Shown piece by piece: positions 49,550 to 61,836 of a stretch of DNA of 64,000 nt. The stretch's first letter is position 1. Every line of letters starts with the position of its first letter. Under the pieces are notes generated by a model, which was given only the letters and a program-made list of their open reading frames with translations, made no database searches and was not told the DNA's origin. The translations under genes were made by a program, and so were the position numbers. The stretch is from positions 192,001-256,000 of the forward strand of contig CAVXTM010000010.1 in assembly GCA_963764725.1 (NCBI GenBank). Direction: 5' to 3'. This stretch comes from an uncultured Gammaproteobacteria bacterium. Lineage in GTDB: Bacteria > Pseudomonadota > Gammaproteobacteria > JACCXJ01.

Positions 49550-52500
49550 ATGAATAATCAGTTCTTCGAAAGGCCCATTCTCAACTCTCCCTACGAGTAC
49601 CCGTCTCGTTACTGGGAGCTCGATGAGCAGGGCCAGCCGACTCAGAGAATCATCGAGCGCCGCCGCCGCGCCGAGTTCATCACGCCGATTCCGAAGCCGA
49701 AGAAAGCGCAAGGGTTCGGCTGAACAAACGTCCTTTCGTCTTCGACGAAGGCAAAGGACTCTCCACCGCAGAAGCAGCAGTACGACCACACAGCCATCAT
49801 CAATTCGAGTTCGCCAGCAGGTGGACCAGTGGCGGCGCTTGCCGAATCCCAACGACTGGCGCGTAACCCCGGAGACGGCGCGCCTGCTTCAGCACTGGCG
49901 GCATCACAAATTCAGCAGCATCCGTCCGTTCTTCTGTCAGATCGAGGCGGTCGAGACCGCCATCTGGCTGACCGAAGTCGCACCCCAGGCGGGCAAGGTG
50001 GGCGAGGGTTTTCTTGAACACCTGGCCAATGCCAACAACGACGCCAACCCGGAGCTCATGCGCCTCGCGCTGAAGCTGGCCACCGGTGCCGGCAAGACCA
50101 CGGTCATGGCGATGCTCATCGCCTGGCAAACCATCAACGCGGTGCGGCGACCGCAGAGCAAACGCTTCACGCGCGGCTTTCTCGTCGTCGCACCGGGCCT
50201 CACGATCAAGGATCGCCTGCGCGTCCTGCAACCGAACGATCCGGACAGCTACTACCAGAGCCGCGAACTGGTTCCGGGCGACATGCTGGACGACGTGAAC
50301 CGCGCCAAGATCGTCATCACCAACTATCACGCCTTCAAGCTTCGCGAGCGGATCGATCTTTCCAAGGGCGGACGCTCGCTGCTCCAAGGGCGCGGCGAAG
50401 AGCTGAACACCCTCGAAACCGAGGGCCAGATGCTCCAGCGGGTGATGCCCGATCTGATGGGCATGAAGAACATTCTCGTGCTCAACGACGAAGCCCACCA
50501 CTGCTATCGAGAGAAGCCGGGAGCCGATGACGAGGAAGATCTGAAAGGGCGACGACAAGAAGGAGGCCGAGAAGAACAACGAAGCCGCCCGTCTCTGGAT
50601 CTCCGGCCTTGAAACCGTCAATCGCAAACTCGGCGTCGCACGCGTGATCGACTTGTCCGCGACGCCGTTCTTTCTGCGCGGCTCAGGCTATGCCGAGGGC
50701 ACGCTGTTCCCGTGGACGATGAGCGACTTCTCGCTGATGGACGCCATCGAGTGCGGCATCGTCAAATTGCCGCGCGTGCCGGTGGCCGACAACATTCCCG
50801 GCGCGGAGATGCCGATGTTCCGCAACCTCTGGGAACACATTCGCTCGAAGATGCCGAAGAAGGGGCCGAGGCAAAGCCAATACGCTCGATCCACTGAGCC
50901 TGCCGCCGCAACTCCAGACAGCACTCGAAGCCCTTTACGGTCACTACGAAAAGACCTTCGCCTTTGGGAGAAGGCCGGAATTCGCGTGCCTCCCTGCTTC
51001 ATCGTGGTCTGCAACAACACCTCCACCTCCAAGCTGGTATACGACTTCATCTCCGGCTTTCACCGGCAGAACGATGACGGCTCTAGCACTCTTGGTAAAC
51101 GGGCGCCTCGCGCTGTTCCGCAACTTCGACGAGCACGGCAACCCGTTCCCGCGGCCGAACACACTGCTCATCGACAGCGAGCAGCTCGAATCCGGCGAGG
51201 CGCTGGATGACAATTTCCGCGCTATGGCCGCCGATGAGATCGAGCGCTTCCGCCGCGAGATCCTCGAACGCGGCGGCCAAGCTCGCCGATGAACTGCAAA
51301 AGGGGAAAGAACTCGATGATGTGACACTGCTCCGCGAAGTGATGAATACCGTCGGCAAGTACGGCCAGTTGGGCGGATCGATTCGTTGCGTCGTTTCCGT
51401 CTCGATGCTCACCGAGGGCTGGGATGCCAATACCGTCACCCACGTGCTCGGCGTGCGCGCCTTCGGCACCCAGCTCCTGTGCGAGCAGGTCATCGGACGG
51501 GCGCTGCGCCGCCAGTCCTACGACCTGAACGAAGAAGGTCTCTTCAATGTGGAATACGCCGACGTGCTCGGCATTCCCTTCGACTTCACCGCCAAGCCGG
51601 TGGTCGCGCCGCCACAACCGCCGCGCGAGACCATCCAGGTCAAGGCGGTGCGGCCCGATCGCGATGCGCTCGAAATCCGCTTCCCGCGTGTCGAAGGCTA
51701 TCGCGTCGAGTTGCCCGAGGAACGGCTGACCGCCGAGTTCAACGAAGACTCCGTGCTCGAACTGACGCCGGATCTGGTCGGGGCCACCGAAACGCAGAAA
51801 CTCCGGAATCATCGGCGAGACGGTGGACCTCAATCTCGTGCATACCGGCGACGTGCGGCCGTCGCAGGTCGCTGTACGAGCTGACGTCGCACCTGGTGCT
51901 GACGCAAGTGGCGCGACGCCCGGCGAAGACCGCAAGCTGCACCTGTTCGGCCAGCTCAAGCGCATCGCCAAGCAGTGGCTCGACGGAGTATTTGGTTTGC
52001 AAAGGCGGTACCTATCCTGCGCAGCTCAAGTACAAGATGCTGGCCGACATGGCCTGCGAGCGGATCATGGCGGGAATCACGCGCGAGTTCGATCGGCGAG
52101 CGCCCCATCAAAGCCGTGCTCGATCCCTACAATCCCACCGGCTCCACGAGCACACGTCAACTTCAACACGTCAAAGCCGGATCGCTGGGAAACCGACTCC
52201 CGCCGTTGTCACATCAACTGGGTCGTGCTCGACAGCGATTGGGAGGCCGAGTTCTGCCGCGTGGCCGAATCGCACCCGCGTGTCCGAGCCTACGTCAAGA
52301 ACCACAACCTCGGTCTTGAAGTGCCTTACCGTTACGGCTCGGAGACGCGCAGGTACCTGCCCGACTTCATCGTGCTGGTGGACGACGGGCACGGCGAAGA
52401 CGATCTCCTGCACCTCATCGTCGAGATCAAAGGCTACCGGCGCGAGGACGCCAAGGAAAAGAAATCCACCATGGACACCTACTGGGTGCCTGGCGTTAAT

Positions 52501-52638
52501 CATCTCGGGACACATGGCCGCTGGGCTTTTGCCGAGTTCACCGAGGTCTATCAGATCGAGGCCGACTTCGAAGCGAAAGTCAAAGCCGAGTTCAATAAGA
52601 TGATCGAAACGTATACCGGTCGAATCGGCCCGGAGTAA
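49550..52638 (+). CDS. Type III-like restriction endonuclease/helicase (Res), many frameshifts as assembled
   Basis: Starts MNNQFFERPILNSPYE. Fragments carry ATGAGKT, NDEAHH, SATP, MLTEGWD, QVIGRALR and PDF...EIKG. Confidence 0.88.
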
Positions 52639-52732: not shown

Positions 52733-53023
52733 ATGAACAGAAACGAAACATTGAAACTCCTGCAAACCCACAAGCCGTACTTGGCCCGGGAGTTCGGCGT
52801 TACCGCTTTGGCTCTGTTCGGCTCCATCGCGCGCGATGTCGCGGGCGCGAACAGCGACGTGGACATCCTGATCGCCTTCGATGGCCCAGCGACATCAAAG
52901 CGTTATTTCGGTGTCCAGTTCTATCTGGAAGACCTGCTGGGCCGCCCTGTGGATCTGGTGACGGTAAAGGCACTGCGTCCGGAGCTGCGCTCCCACATCG
53001 AGCGAGAGGCCATCCATGTCTAA
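52733..53023 (+). CDS. Minimal nucleotidyltransferase (MNT) antitoxin
   Basis: LFGSIARD...SDVDIL (GSx10DxD) and VDLV. Confidence 0.92.
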   Translation: MNRNETLKLLQTHKPYLAREFGVTALALFGSIARDVAGANSDVDILIAFDGPATSKRYFGVQFYLEDLLGRPVDLVTVKALRPELRSHIEREAIHV

Positions 53024-53375
53024 TGGAGTGCGGGGCGAGCGCGAGTGGCGTTTCTACGTAGACGACATGATCGTCTTCGCGGAAAAGGTTCTGTCTTACA
53101 CCAACGGATTGGATCAATCCAGTTTCGTTGCCGACGGGCTCACCTACGATGCCACCCTGCGCAACCTGGAGCTGATCGGCGAGGCGGCTACCCACATCCC
53201 CGACGCGGTGCGCGCCGCTCATCCCGACATCCCGTGGCGGCTGATCATCGCCACGCGCAACCGCCTGATCCACGCCTACTTGGGCATTGACGACGATACG
53301 CTCTGGAGCATCGTCCAGGACGACATCCCTGCGTTCCTGACGGCCTTGCAGAAGCTCAAGCAAGCCCACCAGTGA
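53016..53375 (+). CDS. HEPN/DUF86 toxin
   Basis: RNLELIGEA and RNRLIHAY (Rx4HxY). Confidence 0.92.
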   Translation: MSNGVRGEREWRFYVDDMIVFAEKVLSYTNGLDQSSFVADGLTYDATLRNLELIGEAATHIPDAVRAAHPDIPWRLIIATRNRLIHAYLGIDDDTLWSIVQDDIPAFLTALQKLKQAHQ

Positions 53376-55246
53376 TGTGACCGCAACAACGGATAGCTCT
53401 CCATGGCTAGAAACAAATCGGACACCAAGAAGACCGTCGAAACCCTCAAGCACGACGAGGCCACGCGCAAAAACATTCCGACTGCTGAATATCAGTCGGT
53501 GATGCAGAAGCACGAGCAGGCCCCCGTCCGCGTGACCTACGAGCGCGGTGCAGCCGGGCTCGACGATGCGAAAGAGCAGCGCAACCGCGACCTCGATCCG
53601 CAGCTCGTCTGGCGCGGCAAGGACGAGCAGGACTGGAGCGACCTCGTCGTCCACGCCCCGCCGCTCTACATCCAGGAGAAGGTACACCCCAAGGTGCTCA
53701 TCGACGACCTGCTCAAGCAGACTCGCGAGCAGCGCGCGCAAGAAGTCGGCGCGCAGTTCGATCTCTTTGGCGACTTCAACGGCATCCCCGAGGGCGTGGA
53801 CAAGACCGAGTTCTACCAGCACGACCAGAACTGGTCGAACCGCATGATCCTCGGCGACAGTCCTACAGGTGATGGCGAGCCTCGCCGAGCGCGAAGGACT
53901 GCGCGGCAAGGTGCAATGCATCTACCTCGACCCGCCCTACGGCATCAAATTCAACAGCAACTTCCAGTGGACTACCACCAGCCGCGACGTGAAGGACGGC
54001 AAGGCCGACCACATCACCCGCGAGCCAGAGCAGGTCAAAGCCTTCCGCGACACCTGGCGCGACGGCATCCACAGCTACCTCACGTATCTGCGCGACCGGC
54101 TGACCGTGGCGCGGGATTTACTGACGGATTCGGGTTCGATCTTCGTGCAGATCGGGGATGAGAATGTGCATCGCGTGCGGGCGGTGATGGATGAGGTGTT
54201 TGGGGACGAGAACTTTATCGTTGCAAATCGACTTCGCCACAACGACGAGCCAAACCTGCGCAATTCGTGTCGAGTATTTCAGACCACATCCTTTGGTATT
54301 GCAAAGGACAGATTGCAGACGAAATATCCGGGAGCTGTAGCTTTCGAAGGATCGTGAGAGGCAGGAAACATCTTCGTTTCGCGCTTTACGAACACGATTT
54401 CGTAATCTCACGCAATCCTGCAAACGAGAATGCTCGGCTGTCGGTATTTGGTGATCTTCACTTCTCGGTCCGGCGGGGAGTCCTCAACGGCGACCATTCC
54501 GTCTGGTTTGGCCACGACTTTATCCCGAACTGCCGGCGGAGTGGAAGACCAGCTTGGTCGGCTTAGAAAGGTTAGGGAAAGCCCATCGACTTGGTCTACG
54601 TGGCAAGAATGCCTTCTACAAGAGATACTTCGACGATTGGCCATTTTCCCCAATGCCAAACGCTTGGACTGGACACTCAATCCGGAGGGCTCGGTGTTGA
54701 GAGCAGGATCTATGTCGTTCAGACGAACTTTAAGGTAATAGAGCGCTGCATCCTGATGACCACCGACCCCGGCGACCTTGTCCTCGACCCGACCTGCGGT
54801 TCCGGCACCACCGCCACCGTCGCCGAGCAATGGGGCGGGTCGCCGCTGGATCACGATTGACACCTCGCGCGTGGCACTGGCGCTTGGCCCGGGCTCGCAT
54901 CATGGGTGCGCGCTATCCGTATTACCTGCTGACCGATTCGCGCGAAGGCCAGATCAAGGAAGCCGAAGTGACCCGCACCGTGCCGTCCTCGCAAGCGGTC
55001 CGCGGCAGCATCCGCCACGGATTCGTTTACGAGCGTGTGCCGCACATCACGCTCAAGTCCATCGCCAACAACGTGGAGATTGACGTCATCTGGGATAAAT
55101 ACCAGGCCATCCTCGAACCTCTGCGCGAGCAACTCAACGAAGCTCTTGTAGGATAATGGTATGGACTCCTCCCCTCCCTAACGGCATCGTGATGTGCCAA
55201 AGTGGAGGATGTAACAACCACTTGAACAGAAGAGGAGAAGTCCGCT

Positions 55247-56270
55247 ATGAACGTTACAACAATCGGGTTAGACATTGCAAAGAATGTCTTTCAGGCACAC
55301 GGTGTGGACGGGAAGGGGAAGGTCGCGGTGCGCAAGTCGCTCAGGCGAGGGCAGGTCTTGGCGTTCTTCGCCAACCTCGACCCTTGCGTGGTAGGGATCG
55401 AAGCCTGCGCCGGCGCACACTACTGGGCGCGGGAGCTGGGGAAGCTCGGGCATACGGTCAGGCTCATCAGCCCGCAGTTCGTCAAGCCCTACGTGAAGGG
55501 GAACAAGAATGACAAGAACGACGCGGAGGCGATCTGCGAGGCGGTGGGGCGCCCGAACATGCGTTTTGTGCCGGTGAAGAGCACCGAGAGCCAAGACATT
55601 CTGGCGCTGCACCGGGTACGCAGTGGGTTGGTAAAGGAACGCACCGCGCAGGCAAACCGGCTGCGGGGTTTGTTAGGCGAGTATGGCATCGTCATCGGTC
55701 AGGGCTTGGCGCAGGTACGCAAGCGCCTGCCGGAGATCTTGGAAGACGGCGAGAACGGCCTGAGTGGCTTGGCGCGAGAGCTGTTTGCCGATCTCCACCG
55801 GCAGGTCCTGGAGCTGGACCGGCAAGTGGGGGCCTACGGCGTCAAGCTCCAAGGGCTCTACCATGCGAGCGAGGCGTGCCAGAGGATTGGCCGGATGCCG
55901 GGGGTAGGGCCGATCACGGCGACGGCGGCCGTCGCCTCGGTCGGTGATGGTCGAGCGTTCGAGTCCGGGCGGCAGGTCGCGGCCTGGGTGGGGCTCGTGC
56001 CGCGGCAGGATTCGAGCGGGGGCAAGCCCAAGCTCCTGGGGATCAGCAAGCGGGGCGATACCTACCTGCGCACTCTGCTCATCCACGGGGCGCGGTCCGT
56101 GGTGAAGGCGGCGGCCAAGAAGACCGACGCCCAGAGCCGGTGGATCAACGACCTCGTCAAACGGCGCAACAAGAACATCGCAGCGGTGGCGGTGGAAAAG
56201 AGCTCGGGCGATCTGGGCGCTCCTGAGGCGAGACGAGGGTTACCGCGCGCGGGTTTCGGTTGACGCGTAG
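55247..56270 (+). CDS. IS1111-type recombinase (small frameshift near 56197)
   Basis: IGLDIAK, EAC, KNDKNDAEAI and GLVP...SSGGK. The true tail ARAIWALL...TAG 56270 is in another frame. Confidence 0.9.
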
Positions 56271-56279
56271 CACGCGAGG

Positions 56280-56515
56280 CCACAGGGTTTTTCACCTTCC
56301 ACCCAGTTGCGAAGCATCTTTCGAAGCGATGGCAAAGCGGTCAGACCGGTGTTTTCAGCAATCCGCTCAGCGCATGGGCCTTCGAGGCCGGTAGGATGAT
56401 TGAGATGAAGACACGCGGATATTCCATCGGGGCCAGAGGCATCGCAAGCCTCATTGACAGGCCGGATATATGGGAGCAACTGCGCTCACCGACCGCTGCA
56501 ATCAAAGCGAAAAGA
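56280..56515 (+). ncRNA. Putative seekRNA/bridge RNA of the IS1111-type element (ends approximate)
   Basis: CTCAGCGCAT (56366-56375) and GTAGGAT (56391-56397) match the two halves of the REP target and flank a hairpin inside an outer stem. Confidence 0.72.
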
Positions 56516-57111
56516 TGCTTGCAAATCGGGAGGAGTCCATATATGGGCTGAGGCACGAAGCCCATCAATCGCGACCGATGGGCTTCGTTCTTGCTCAGCC
56601 CATCCTACCAAGACGTTCAAACCCTTCGAAGAATGGGAGATTCCACGCGAGGTCGATGCCAAATGGCCGGACGCAGCCAAGAAGCTCCATGCCCAATGGT
56701 GGGAACAACGCATCGCCCGCCAGCGTGAGATCGATGCGTCGATCGCCGCCAAGGCCGAGTTCGAATACCTCTACGACAAGCCCTACGACAACAAGAAGAT
56801 AGTTCGCGTGGCCGGGCCGTTCACCGTCGAGAGCCTTTCCCCGCACCGCATGCTCGGCGTGGACGAGAACGACGAATTGATTGATCGCGTCGCCGAACCC
56901 GGCGCTGACTACAGCGCCAAGCAGTCTTTTCCCCAGATGATCCTGGAAAACCTCAAAACCGCCGGCGTCCAGCAAGCACATAAGGAAGACAAAATCACCT
57001 TCACCGCGCTTACGCCGTGGCCCGGCGATCTGGTCTGCGCCGAAGGCCGGTATGTCGAAACGCACCCCTCACCCCAACCCTTGTATGTTCTATTTTGTAG
57101 AAATTAATGAA

Positions 57112-58157
57112 ACGGGCTATCCACTTAACGCAAGTCACCGCTATATGTTGGGGTCCGGGCTGTTGACGATTTGGCGGTAAGACACTGGCGGCGTCGCCAC
57201 GGCCTGTTGCATCAGGCGGTAGAAGAGAAGCCCGCGGGAGCGAGAGGTGCGCCGGTTGAAGCGAAACGTGTATTCGTCGAGGTAGTAGTCGAGGTACCTG
57301 CCACTTACCGCGCCTTGGTGAGTTCCGAGCAGCCAGCGTTTGAGCAGAGAGGCGATGCGGTGGACACCGGGCATCAGGACATGGGCCGGGTCTCCGCTGT
57401 CGGAGAGATTCGTCTTGATGCGCGTATATCCAGACTTCGTCATGTCGTTGTACCCGCCCCAGGCGTCGGTGAGAACTTCCGAACCGGGCTCAATGCTCTC
57501 GCGCACGAAAGGGACGAGATTGGCGCCGGAGGCGTCGGCCACACGTCTCATGCGCACGCGTCCAAATCCCTTCGGTTCGTGTAGTTCGACGGCGATGACC
57601 ACAATCTCCTTTCGTTCTGCTCCACGGCCACGCTTACCGCCTTTTTCGCTGCCTCCTACGAGCGTCTCGTCCACTTCAACGCGACCATGAAGCCGCTCGC
57701 GCCCAGCTCGCACCATCGCGCGTCGCAGCTTATGCAACCAGGTCCATGCCGTTTGATAGCTTCCCAACCCCAGAACCCGCTTCAGGCCGAGAGCGTTGGC
57801 TCCATGCTTCTGACTCGTCACAAACCATATCGCCGCCAACCATGTCTTCAACGGGATACGCGTTCGCTCGAACATCGTACCTGCCGTGACCGAGATCTCT
57901 GCACCGCAATCCCGACAATGCAGGTAACCTCGTCCCGTGATCCAGGGCGCACCGCTGGACCCACAGCGTGGACAGTGGTAACCCGCTGGCCAGCGAAGGC
58001 CCGCAAGATACTCGCGACAGCCCGCATCGTCCTCGAAAAAATCATTGAACTCGCCGAATGTCCGAGGGTAGTCGGACCCGCCGACTGGCCCTTCCCCTGT
58101 CCCCATGGGTAGCAAACACTAGATGTTGTGGTGACTTGCGTCAAGTGGATAGCCCGT
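57112..58157 (-). mobile_element. IS1595-family element
   Basis: 28-bp TIRs ACGGGCTATCCACTT(A/G)ACGCAAGTCACC. The 8-bp TSD TTAATGAA (57104-57111, 58158-58165) is confirmed by the empty site in IS110 copy 1. Confidence 0.93.
57141..58115 (-). CDS. IS1595-family transposase
   Basis: CPRC/CRDC zinc ribbon, VEVDET, TDAW and YLDEYTFRFNRR. Confidence 0.93.
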   Translation of the reverse strand: MLPMGTGEGPVGGSDYPRTFGEFNDFFEDDAGCREYLAGLRWPAGYHCPRCGSSGAPWITGRGYLHCRDCGAEISVTAGTMFERTRIPLKTWLAAIWFVTSQKHGANALGLKRVLGLGSYQTAWTWLHKLRRAMVRAGRERLHGRVEVDETLVGGSEKGGKRGRGAERKEIVVIAVELHEPKGFGRVRMRRVADASGANLVPFVRESIEPGSEVLTDAWGGYNDMTKSGYTRIKTNLSDSGDPAHVLMPGVHRIASLLKRWLLGTHQGAVSGRYLDYYLDEYTFRFNRRTSRSRGLLFYRLMQQAVATPPVSYRQIVNSPDPNI

Positions 58158-58165
58158 TTAATGAA

Positions 58166-59296
<1,131 letters not shown>

Positions 59297-59680
59297 CTTT
59301 GAACACGGTTGCTCTCCCGCAAGGGGCGAGGGAGAAAAGCGGAGCGCCGCCCAAGGCTTGGAACCCTCTCCACCCAGTGGGGGGAGAGGGGAGGGTGAGG
59401 GGGGCGGAGTAGAAAAACGCGCCGCCATCTTCATCGGTCCGGAATTCGGTACCGTCACCCGCCCCGATCTGGTGGCCGCCGCGCGTGAGGCCGGCGATGC
59501 CGACTTTGACGTGCTGATCGCCTGCGCCTTCAACTACGAGGCACACGCGACCGAGTTTAGCAAGCTCGGCCGTATCCCCGTGCTCAAGGCGCGCATGAAC
59601 GCCGACCTCCACATGGCCGAAGACCTCAAGAACACCGGCAAAGGCAATCTGTTCGTGATCTTCGGTGAACCGGATGTGGA

Positions 59681-60120
59681 AGTGGCTAGTGAAGAGTGGT
59701 TAGTGGATAGTGACGAGAAGAGAATCGCGCCTTATGAAATCTTTAAGCTCGTTTCGGGAGTTGATAGTCTGGCGGAAGTCAATCGACTTGGCCGTGAGGA
59801 TTTACGCGACTACTCGCAGCTTTCCCACCGAGGAGAGATTTGGGATTACATCGCAAATGCGGCGGGCGGCGACCTCCATTCCGGCAAACATCGCCGAGGG
59901 ACAGGCGCGAAAAACGACGGGGGAGTTTCTGCAGTCGCTTGGCGTTGCGCGAGGATCTCTGGCGGAGCTGGAAACCTTTCTGACATTGTCCGAAAGATTG
60001 GAGTTTCTCACCAAACCGGACTCCGAGAGCTTACTCAACGCCTGCGCCGAGATCAACAAAATGCTCCACGCGCTCATGAAATCCTTATCGACTCTCCACT
60101 AGCCACTAACCACTATTCAC
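59681..60120. repeat. Inverted heptamer tandem repeats enclosing the four-helix-bundle gene
   Basis: AGTGGCT-AGTGAAG-AGTGGTT-AGTGGAT-AGTGACG on the left and CCACTAG-CCACTAA-CCACTAT-TCAC on the right. 59689-59712 pairs with 60097-60120 at 22/24. Confidence 0.85.
59734..60102 (+). CDS. Four-helix-bundle protein (23S rRNA IVS protein / TIGR02436-like), nested in +1 frame inside mod
   Basis: SFRELIVWRKS, FPTEERFGITSQMRRAATSIPANIAEG and ARGSLAELET. Confidence 0.92.
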   Translation: MKSLSSFRELIVWRKSIDLAVRIYATTRSFPTEERFGITSQMRRAATSIPANIAEGQARKTTGEFLQSLGVARGSLAELETFLTLSERLEFLTKPDSESLLNACAEINKMLHALMKSLSTLH

Positions 60121-60541
60121 AAGTCACTGTCCACGGCGTCGATATCTTCCACCCGCAGACCGGCGAAGTCCGCAGCGACGGCCCCGAAGGCATCGCCTGC
60201 TGGTTCATCGACACCGACTACAACGAAGAGAGCTTCTTCGTCCGCCACGCCTACTTCCTCGGTGCCAACGATCCCTACAGCGCCCTGAAAACGACCCTCA
60301 AAGCCGAGATCAACGACGAGGCCTGGGCCACCCTCAACAGCGACACCTCCCGCGCCTTCGACAAACCGAAGTCCGGGCGGATCGCCGTAAAAGTCATCAA
60401 CCACCTTGGGGATGAGGTGATGAAGGTGTTCCGTGTTTGACAAAGTCCATATTGCATTGTTCTTGCGTAAAATGGATCGGCTATTGGCGATATATTGCCC
60501 AAATAATTTTAAAGACCCTTACCACATTTCACTCGACAACT

Positions 60542-61291
60542 ATGGCTAGGCAGCGGCATCTAACTCACGCACCGATTACCGAGGCACTGATCAACCTTCA
60601 CGTAGAACATCGAGGTGGCCTTTCGTTTACGGCGCTCCAAGACGCGTTCAGTACTTTGGACTTCGGGTATTACTTAAAGGGGCCAATTTCCCTCGGGACT
60701 TTTGGCTTCAAACTTACAACCGATGGTCAGCAGCCGCAGACGACAGCAGATGCCACACAAATAGGACTGCGATTACATTCGTCGGATGAAAAATACGTCG
60801 CACAATGCCGGCTCGCAGGATTTACGTTGAGCCGTCTGCCGCCGTATGAGGCATGGCCGATGTTGGTTCAGGAAACGAAACGTGTCTGGTCGGTCTACAG
60901 GGACCGATTGGCCCCATTACGCGTGACTCGTGTAGCCACCCGCTTTATTAACAATCTACAACTTCCACTGGAGCACGGGGCGTCATTTCAGACGTATTTA
61001 CAAAAATTTGCGGACCTTCCGGATGAAGCGCCACAGGCGGTTGCTTCGTTTTTTCAGCGCTTTCAATTGGTGGATGTCGCGAGTAATGCCTCTGTAAACT
61101 TGACTCTGGCGCTCGAATCGATGTCACCAGGCAGACCAGCGCCGGTGATTCTAGACGTTGACGCGTTCAGTTTTACGGACTTGGACCCCATGGACGATAA
61201 ACTTTGGGTGATTCTTGAGCACCTGAGGACGCTGAAGAACAACAGTTTTTTTGGTAGCTTAACTGAGCGAGCAGCGGAGTTATACGGATGA
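60542..61291 (+). CDS. TIGR04255-like protein
   Basis: LTHAPITEA, RVATRFIN, VILDVD and LRTLKNNSFFGSLT. Confidence 0.75.
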   Translation: MARQRHLTHAPITEALINLHVEHRGGLSFTALQDAFSTLDFGYYLKGPISLGTFGFKLTTDGQQPQTTADATQIGLRLHSSDEKYVAQCRLAGFTLSRLPPYEAWPMLVQETKRVWSVYRDRLAPLRVTRVATRFINNLQLPLEHGASFQTYLQKFADLPDEAPQAVASFFQRFQLVDVASNASVNLTLALESMSPGRPAPVILDVDAFSFTDLDPMDDKLWVILEHLRTLKNNSFFGSLTERAAELYG

Positions 61292-61836
61292 GTTTAGCCA
61301 TTGCAATTGGTGATTCGCGTCTAGCTTGGGAGTTTGACTATGAACCCATTACAGACAGTAGTCGCGAGATTCAGCGGGCGTGGGCGCAGAAAAGAAATTA
61401 CCTGCAAGGAAGCGCGTCAGATTGGTTTCCGACTACAGAAGCAGCTCTTGGTAACATTAAAAAAGAGTGTGGCAGGACGGACTGGGACGGCAGTGGCGCG
61501 ATTCCAGTGAGTGATCAAGTGATCGATCTTGCGGCGGAAATTGTAGGATCGTTGTTTACGATACTGCCCCGAGGCACACCGGCGCCTGATCTCATACCGG
61601 AAGCTGACGGGGAGATTTGTCTAAGCTGGTCCATTGATGCCAGCCGGTTATTTTCATTGAGCGTGGGCGCGCACGACAAGATCAATTTCGCTGGTCAGTT
61701 CGGCAAGGAGGGCGGTATTCATGCCTGGCAGCCGATTGATGCGACGAGTCGCAGCAGTCTTGAAAAATCTCTTCAAGACGCTGCTCGGTACATTGGGCGT
61801 CTCTACGCGCCGGCTACCATTAACCGTAAGTCCTGA
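61288..61836 (+). CDS. Hypothetical protein, translationally coupled to the TIGR04255-like gene
   Basis: ATGA overlap. Contains DWDGSGAIP and PEADGEICLSW. Confidence 0.7.
   Translation: MSLAIAIGDSRLAWEFDYEPITDSSREIQRAWAQKRNYLQGSASDWFPTTEAALGNIKKECGRTDWDGSGAIPVSDQVIDLAAEIVGSLFTILPRGTPAPDLIPEADGEICLSWSIDASRLFSLSVGAHDKINFAGQFGKEGGIHAWQPIDATSRSSLEKSLQDAARYIGRLYAPATINRKS

Follow-up and report, generated by a model that had tools for sequence, protein, structure and literature searches.

A PF05635 cassette in a predicted β-hairpin turn of a type III-like mod gene: one insertion site and an open host reading frame

How can a complete gene, enclosed by inverted repeats, reside within another protein-coding gene without destroying the reading frame of its host? 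The question is raised by positions 59681 to 60120 of a 64,000-nt stretch of DNA from an uncultured gammaproteobacterium (the window). A sequence-only reading had seen here an intron-like or IVS-like (intervening sequence) mobile cassette within a mod gene, which would spare its host by RNA-level removal, by ribosome bypass or by tolerated dual coding. The feature so described is confirmed. We consider it probable that it is an IVS-type PF05635 cassette which occupies the turn of a β-hairpin of Mod, is translated through, and moves between mod alleles at one and the same site; in the present genome the host has since decayed.

The cassette and the remains of its host

The cassette ends in inverted heptamer arrays (Table 1). 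The 24-bp stem with two mismatches, read directly from the sequence (59689-59712 with 60097-60120), is confirmed by a repeat search which delimits inverted arms of 44 nt (59681-59724 and 60085-60128, 80% complementary). It is equally evident in an RNA fold in which a terminal stem, 59676-59715 with 60095-60134, encloses the whole cassette. The minimum free energy of the fold is -179.8 kcal/mol (z -5.67), and equally good folds were obtained in 0 of 100 shuffles. The terminal helix of 24 pairs is retained in 11 cassettes, and six of its pairs show double compensatory changes. The insert of about 440 nt, which had been placed between the mod segments FGEPDVEV and QVTVHGVDIFHP, is indeed present, but the paired arms extend into DVEV and QVTVH, both of which had been counted as mod. 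The QVT codons, into which the 24-pair helix extends, are for this reason part of the element.

At the left junction (59676-59686) the window has six differences within 11 nt when compared with G003, a genome of the same genus. These create complementarity to 60122-60134 and a longer stem. The junction reads GTGGAAG in the window and in two further filled loci (L104, L105), and ATTACGG in G003 and L132. The clustered changes look like a templated correction of a quasi-palindrome.

Table 1. Features of the res-mod locus and of the nested cassette (positions in the window).
Feature	Position	Strand	Remarks
res, split into several frames	49623-52638	+	ORF list; ResIII (Pfam) on the first piece, 49623-50609
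Upstream mod fragments	53427-57053	+	53427-55144 in frames 3,1,2,3,1,2; then 56619-57053
N6_N4_Mtase motif region of mod	53869-54354	+	Pfam
First IS110-family gene interrupting mod	55247-56263		Pfam
IS1595-family transposase gene inside mod	57141-58115	-	Pfam DDE_Tnp_IS1595
Second IS110-family transposase gene inside mod	58349-59296	+	Pfam DEDD_Tnp_IS110, Transposase_20; ends 125 nt before the left flank
mod left flank of insert	59421-59684	+	tblastn of intact homologue; 23 synonymous vs 3 non-synonymous codon differences to G003
Left arm	59676-59724	+	GTGnnnn-type heptamer array; mod-frame reading VEVASEEWLVDSD
Inserted stretch vs empty-site homologues	59685-60119	+	435 nt, i.e., 145 stop-free mod-frame codons
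Four-helix-bundle (4HB) gene	59734-60102	+	PF05635, 122 aa, frame +1 relative to mod
Right arm	60085-60134	+	nnnnCAC-type heptamers complementary to left arm; mod-frame reading PLATNHYSQVTVH
mod right flank	60120-60440	+	C-terminal 106 codons and stop; 29 synonymous vs 7 non-synonymous differences to G003

The 4HB gene starts with an ATG at 59734, which is aligned with the start codon of eight relatives, and ends with a TAG at 60100-60102 inside the right arm; a GTG at 59710 is an alternative upstream start. The mod frame, to which this gene is in frame +1, is free of stops from 59268 to 60440, i.e., across the entire cassette, and the stem-bounded piece 59689-60120 has a length of 432 nt. Both properties are as the sequence-only reading had them. 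The cassette is the only PF05635 match in the whole genome. Between 59300 and 60500 no Rfam family, and in particular no Rfam intron, was detected, nor a sigma-70-like promoter or a terminator-like site. Transcription of the 4HB gene probably depends on the mod transcript.

PF05635 is a very large family without an assigned function. The 122-aa protein matches its profile over positions 1-105 of 106 with E 1.5e-38 and 131.7 bits, far above the curated cut-off of 33.8, and is thus a member of the PF05635/TIGR02436-type family. With nine relatives as an alignment AF2 predicts four helices (residues 11-27, 32-58, 62-88 and 94-121) at a pLDDT of 92.9. A profile of nine 4HB sequences finds in the PDB 2GSC, the solved Xanthomonas protein, at E 4e-38, and 2RLD at 7e-14. 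The predicted fold is a four-helix bundle related to the solved S23p; Pfam, AF2 and PDB matches agree on the complete ORF that had been proposed. Apart from PF05635 Pfam reports for this ORF only a bAvd-like match of 31.1 bits, below the respective cut-off of 40 bits, and no nuclease, recombinase, splicing or homing-endonuclease domain. PADLOC models do not match the protein. None of the eight RVT_1 matches in the genome, i.e., no reverse transcriptase, is located on contig C10, the contig of the cassette.

The locus order, res followed by mod, is type III-like, and both domains, ResIII and N6_N4_Mtase, are present. Residues 758-1105 of an intact homologue map on 59421-60437 (tblastn). One continuous mod frame does not exist: three IS elements and several frameshifts interrupt the gene. 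Both mod and res are dead here, and mod is a pseudogene. The earlier view of the host as a protein-coding mod gene missed the IS elements and frameshifts upstream. Because mod and res have already decayed, the open host frame across this particular cassette is a relic, and as mod is dead nothing needs rescue in this genome. Of the nested pair the 4HB gene alone is still intact.

The C-terminal 106 residues of Mod are 85-93% identical across genomes labelled as more than 10 phyla (L021-L100), including Pseudomonadota, Chloroflexota, Planctomycetota, Acidobacteriota and Verrucomicrobiota. Such a distribution argues for a very wide horizontal transfer of the system. Between res and mod the window has a HepT-like ribonuclease gene (53016-53375, +; PF01934, E 2e-27), a toxin-type add-on at the joint of a restriction operon. 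Directly 3' of mod are two overlapping ORFs on the plus strand, 60437-61291 and 61288-61836, with 284 and 182 aa, which belong to no Pfam family; the latter has a weak match to PDC-M32A (E 0.0021), the sole PADLOC match of the pair. Window and G003 show no synteny 3' of mod, and the post-mod ORFs have no DNA match in the G003 stretch which was compared. The mod gene of G003 (L020) contains a further in-frame patch, IPAKAGIQKEAKDWTPASGGVTD, which resembles a translated palindromic repeat. A second in-frame patch of this kind, PSPPSGGRGEGEGGG, is present in mod of both G003 and the window; in the window it contains a 13-nt inverted repeat, 59364-59376 and 59378-59390.

Empty and filled alleles at one codon

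The sequence-only reading had suggested an alignment of mod homologues in order to define the empty site. With the 106-residue right flank of Mod as query a homologue is found in 13 of 61 related genomes. Eight close and six distant homologues in these genomes have a short loop only, i.e., they are empty; G003 is filled at the same codon, and 652 codons of its mod, as far as the contig reaches, can be read without a stop. In a DNA alignment with eight empty loci the empty site is clear: ...GAC ATC ACG / ATC CTC GAT GGC GAC GAC GGC AAG ATC / CGC GTT AAG GTT AAC GGC... The insert of 435 nt stands in place of a loop of 24 nt, a net gain of 411 nt. This loop is the predicted turn of a β-hairpin in the C-terminal domain of Mod.

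A scan with one genome per species yielded 600 candidate stretches of which 589 encode a relative; the best 80 of the 589 were kept. Both flanks are present in 77 of these best 80 loci: 70 are empty and seven are filled at the same codon. The empty loop has 24 nt in 60 of the 70 cases, and in the other ten, which range from 21 to 54 nt, no remnants of heptamer arms were found which might be taken as excision scars. Genomes flagged as unpublished (G001, G005, G008, G009, G012, G154) underlie the empty calls L004, L007, L008, L010, L011, L015 and L017-L019 as well as the copy L104. The DNA alignment and the gaps in the tblastn matches to empty-site homologues thus bear out that an IVS-like cassette was inserted. 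A target duplication is absent from the DNA alignment with the empty loci. A nucleic-acid hairpin as a landing pad is unsupported, the consensus fold of 18 empty sites having only -2.6 kcal/mol.

How old is the cassette in relation to its hosts? One cassette type, type A, is shared by the window, G003, L104 and L132, a metagenome contig. These cassettes are 94.5-97.9% identical at the nucleotide level. The mod flanks of the same carriers are only 86-89% identical, with differences at 31-36% of third positions, a divergence as large as between any two members of the family. Between window and G003 the similar tract extends from about 59687 to about 60142 and comprises the arms and all between them. 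Because the cassette is 94.5-98% identical and the flanks are 86-89% identical, a recent spread to one fixed site is indicated. Judged by these identities the mod alleles are older than the cassette they carry, and the alignments argue for repeated arrival, or copying, at this site. Mobility as proposed before is in this respect supported, i.e., as a spread among mod alleles. Cassettes of older types show less conservation than the flanks around them.

Alternatively, a single ancient insertion might have been inherited vertically with mod, with no ongoing mobility and with a frame which in the window, the gene being dead, is open by an accident of composition. All Mod insertions have site, orientation and frame in common, as would be expected, and the -1 frame is the one which is easiest to keep open in G+C-rich DNA. 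Against this stand the type-A cassettes, nearly identical between flanks which differ by 11-14%, and the converse situation, in which flanks of equal relatedness (91-93% identical at the protein level) carry cassettes with proteins that are 54-57% identical. Further, the empty loops are uniform and have no arm remnants, and the host frame is open far more often than in the shuffled and free-standing controls described below. We regard a purely vertical history as very improbable.

The open host frame: chance, selection and translation

We examined 14 filled Mod loci as DNA: the window, G003, L104, L105, L022 (which is identical to L102), L027, L040, L048, L068, L071, L077, L130, L131 and L132. 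An open host frame together with an insert length divisible by three (3n) is found in ten (window, G003, L104, L022, L040, L068, L077, L027, L071 and L132), a proportion which overstates the number of events and its significance because the filled loci share ancestry, being of three or four cassette types. The inserts in these ten have 435 nt (four loci), 462 nt (four loci), 531 nt and 246 nt. L040, L077 and L132 have an uninterrupted host frame over at least 999 codons upstream, and their mod is intact. In the shortest insert, L071:2755-3000, a central part of the 4HB gene (216 nt, 72 codons) is deleted, and nonetheless the host frame continues without a stop over at least 1000 codons. L131, truncated by the end of its contig, starts inside the insert, and what is present of it is open. 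The host frame is broken in three of the 14 loci: L048 has a frameshift, L105 has 462 nt with one stop, and L130 has decayed in both frames. A predominance of broken host frames, which would have spoken against the cassette sparing its host, is thus not observed.

Two controls address chance. In 2000 synonymous-codon shuffles per 4HB gene the host frame remained open in 2.4-19.8% depending on the cassette, with a mean of 1.4-2.8 stops; the other frame was open in none. The second control draws on 151 genomes, sampled evenly from the same class. A PF05635 gene is present in 29 of them, and 24 of the 29 loci were analysed, weaker or stop-containing matches being omitted. The -1 frame, i.e., the one which corresponds to mod, is open in three of the 24 genes (L102, L104 and L113), and all three are inside ORFs open for 602-738 codons. 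The nested L105, with its single host-frame stop, also belongs to this sample. All 20 free-standing PF05635 genes have at least one stop in the -1 frame. At the 13 loci with a G+C content of at least 0.5, the nested ones included, the mean is 2.8 stops, and the +1 frame is open in one of the 24 genes of the class-wide sample. That openness and 3n length should exceed chance had been put forward as a check, and the outcome is ten of 14 filled loci against none of 20 free-standing ones, with 0.02-0.20 of the shuffles open. The direction of the excess is clear; gene callers and the protein search are biased towards open frames.

What is under selection? In the flanks 70 of 594 nt differ between window and G003. 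Of these differences 59 are at host third positions, and 52 codon differences are synonymous versus 10 non-synonymous. In the insert only 20 of 435 nt differ, none of them between 59815 and 59943. Read in the host frame, the insert has four synonymous and 13 non-synonymous differences, read in the 4HB frame nine and six. Over 11 cassette pairs the synonymous to non-synonymous counts in the core of the 4HB gene are 231:154 in the 4HB frame and 26:351 in the host frame; in its 3' part they are 124:187 and 17:317, and in its first 22 codons 34:72 and 32:72, respectively. Clearly, flanks and 4HB frame are under purifying selection. In the filled alleles the right flank of Mod has retained 81-100% aa identity. 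From the synonymous and non-synonymous patterns it follows that in filled alleles the downstream part of Mod is under selection and that the host-frame peptide is merely kept open; because the right flank is conserved, ribosomes must reach it. A special case is the start of the 4HB gene: in its first 22 codons 12 of 22 third positions are variable, compared with 51 of 53 in the core. This constraint on the first 66 nt falls outside a read-through model, and it may reflect a short conserved host-frame segment or a requirement of translation start. In the AF2 model of the host frame helices are predicted over this region at a pLDDT of 65-79.

How then would the host cope? Of the three mechanisms which had been proposed, tolerated dual coding is the one the data fit, with open frames of 3n length. 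A PF05635 gene within inverted heptamer arrays would have been placed in the β-hairpin turn of a widely transferred, type III-like Mod. The host gene would survive as the cassette has 3n length, is stop-free in the -1 frame and is translated through. The two arms would be read as strands which lengthen the host hairpin, and the interior would form an additional, mostly unconstrained excursion of some 110 residues. From the same mRNA the 4HB protein would be made in the +1 frame, starting at its own ATG. The cassette would move, or be copied, between mod alleles and always to the same site; in the present genome mod and res have since decayed through frameshifts and three IS insertions. We infer translation of both frames, as well as the mode of cassette movement, from the patterns described. 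An AF2 model of the C-terminal 343 residues of Mod with the insert (alignment of 50 sequences, mean pLDDT 73) has two 17-residue strands, 83-99 and 232-248, which extend over host strands and arm peptides at a pLDDT of 72-87; the interior, 146-191, is below 50. With the strand pairing deduced from DSSP, the predicted arm strands are consistent with a lengthened hairpin. A Foldseek search of the Mod C-terminal domain against the PDB gave nothing at E ≤ 0.001.

Rescue at the RNA level is a competitor: the stem would be cut from the mod mRNA like an IVS from 23S rRNA, or the ribosome would hop across it, and Mod would be made without the insert. A long terminal stem conserved with compensatory changes speaks for it, as do the rRNA IVSs, which harbour the same gene family and are excised by RNase III (PMC4990558). 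According to that paper, excision from rRNA is not followed by ligation. Excision could thus not restore the mod mRNA, since it would leave two fragments and no restored frame; RNase III may still cleave the stem, which would lower Mod expression. If the insert were removed, stops in the host frame would be neutral, as they are in 20 of 20 free-standing cassettes. If it were bypassed, the skipped insert would tolerate stops and any length, yet an open frame and a 3n length are found in ten of the 14 filled loci. The internally deleted L071, which keeps the host frame, argues in the same direction, as does the absence at the locus of an Rfam intron or any other RNA family. Among RNA runs the highest word share was 0.18; X1, X4, X10 and X11 yielded nothing but contigs, most of them from related alleles which are empty, and joints which skip 453-526 nt are indistinguishable from empty alleles of other organisms. 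Because insert length and openness are conserved although they would be neutral in an insert that is cut out or skipped, read-through is favoured, and an RNA-level rescue appears quite unlikely.

Other hosts and a possible function of the nested gene

A search of 1.84 billion representatives with the 145 aa which the insert encodes in the host frame retrieves 57 clusters (E ≤ 0.001). In 19 of the 57 the match continues from the insert into the right flank of Mod, and 17 of these 19 also match the left flank. Ten clusters consist of left flank and insert without the right flank and are cut short by the contig end, by a stop or by a frameshift; at least two of these ten, P0012 and P0057, visibly leave the frame. 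When compared with G003, flank identity varies from 22 to 92%, and insert identity is steady near 30-40%. The junction peptides are alike throughout, GEPD(V/I)x-VxSxxW(L/I)VxS ... PLxxTxH(Y/W)(S/T)-QVT(V/I)xG, with a low-G+C variant, VFSxQFLVFS ... The protein search detects exclusively hosts which read the -1 frame; the class-wide DNA sample covered both alternative frames.

Among 30 long hits Pfam identifies seven N6_N4_Mtase proteins, two methylases of the Eco57I/MmeI type, one DUF559 and one partial PF05635; 18 match nothing, and one cadherin match is spurious. P0052, which is Eco57I-like, and P0055, which is MmeI-like, contain the same arm peptides within different host proteins. In L113:729-2696, a DUF1156 DNA methylase, a PF05635 gene is nested at 1459-1842 in frame +1, and the host reads the -1 frame. 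Thus the identifiable hosts, i.e., N6_N4 Mod, DUF1156, Eco57I-like and MmeI-like, are all DNA methyltransferase genes.

Some loci deserve a remark of their own. Further along, L113 has a second arm-like patch, gene-less and read in frame, EEREVRGSAADSHSSLLSPRSS. A free-standing cassette of the same family is located between carA and carB (L109:1480-1881), and its repeat arms read into the end of carA, RDSGLGTRDSGLG. P0009, a protein of 552 aa of no known family, contains a solo arm-hairpin peptide, VDSGQWLVVS...SSLTTNY, directly ahead of a read-through cassette; it may be a further host protein.

The restriction to methyltransferase genes invites the idea of a domesticated module, in which the 4HB protein is an accessory or regulator of the restriction-modification system and nesting was selected for this function. 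Purifying selection on the 4HB frame is in line with it, as is a 4HB gene which is intact here despite a dead mod, and relatives such as Avd are described as accessory proteins of other systems (PMC10053308). On the other hand, 70 of 77 homologues from the best 80 loci do without the cassette, L071 has lost the 4HB gene and mod is still open, the same cassette design occurs between unrelated genes, carA and carB, and no PADLOC model covers the 4HB protein. The methylase bias may just as well reflect hosts which are large, dispensable and horizontally mobile. Domestication therefore seems unlikely to us.

Compared with this, a mobile cassette which is translated through at one site of Mod remains the preferred reading, and it can be extended. 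PF05635 cassettes may constitute a mobile class which colonises hairpin tips, be it rRNA tetraloops or protein β-turns. In the methylase lineage a stop-free -1 frame would have evolved, with arms which double as β-strands and about 370 nt of dual coding, and the 4HB protein would either promote same-site copy-and-paste or tune the restriction-modification host. We advance this generalisation as a tentative one, with more doubt than confidence.

Long overlapping genes are rare in bacteria and mostly attributed to overprinting. Here, a complete and conserved gene arrived ready-made inside another, and the pair persists over many phyla with both frames intact. For the PF05635 family this provides a repeatable genetic context, DNA-methylase genes that belong to defence systems. 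A simple experimental handle is at hand in one enzyme with both filled and empty alleles. For annotation, nested loci should be called as two genes and not as a split or frameshifted mod.

Comparison with known mobile elements

The IVSs of 23S rRNA reside in helix 9, 25 or 45 of the 23S gene. Like the cassette, those of Leptospira, of Coxiella burnetii and of Xanthomonas (S23p) contain a gene for a PF05635 protein within complementary arms which form a long stem, and the complementary ends of the cassette do form a stable stem-loop. Both take the place of a hairpin tip, an rRNA tetraloop there and a protein β-hairpin turn here. In rRNA the stem-loop substitutes a tetraloop, and IVSs are described as sporadic, horizontally spread and located at conserved sites (PMC4990558). 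The cassette differs in that its host is a protein-coding gene, its arms are translated and the host reading frame is conserved; it is located in the mod coding sequence and not in an rRNA helix, and 59300-60500 is devoid of Rfam matches. A literature search, with subscription journals and supplements outside its range, found no report of the heptamer arms or of a coding gene with a PF05635 cassette inside it.

A likeness of PF05635 to Avd of diversity-generating retroelements has been described (PMC10053308). The two share a related helical-bundle fold family, and the bAvd-like score of the 4HB protein is below the cut-off; the adjacent reverse transcriptase of such retroelements is missing, contig C10 being free of RVT_1.

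Rickettsia palindromic elements (RPEs) are palindromic selfish DNA inserted in frame in coding genes and translated within the host protein (PMC10969869). The cassette shares the in-frame insertion with an open host frame, 435 nt without a stop. RPEs, however, have about 150 bp, no separate gene and multiple copies per genome. The cassettes have 435-531 nt and a complete gene in another frame, and the present one, with its 122-aa gene and the one PF05635 match in the genome, is neither gene-less nor multi-copy. Unlike RPEs and other intragenic MITEs, it is found nested in DNA-methylase genes only.

With inteins and the introns of homing endonucleases the cassette has in common the occupancy of one fixed site in diverged alleles, a host which is spared, and an insert younger than its hosts (94.5-97.9% versus 86-89% identity). 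In contrast to these, it possesses no splicing domain, no endonuclease and no ribozyme or other Rfam intron, and the protein apparently retains the insert. Provided that the insert is translated, the cassette would represent a third route by which a mobile element can live inside a coding gene, beside introns, which rely on RNA splicing, and inteins, which rely on protein splicing.
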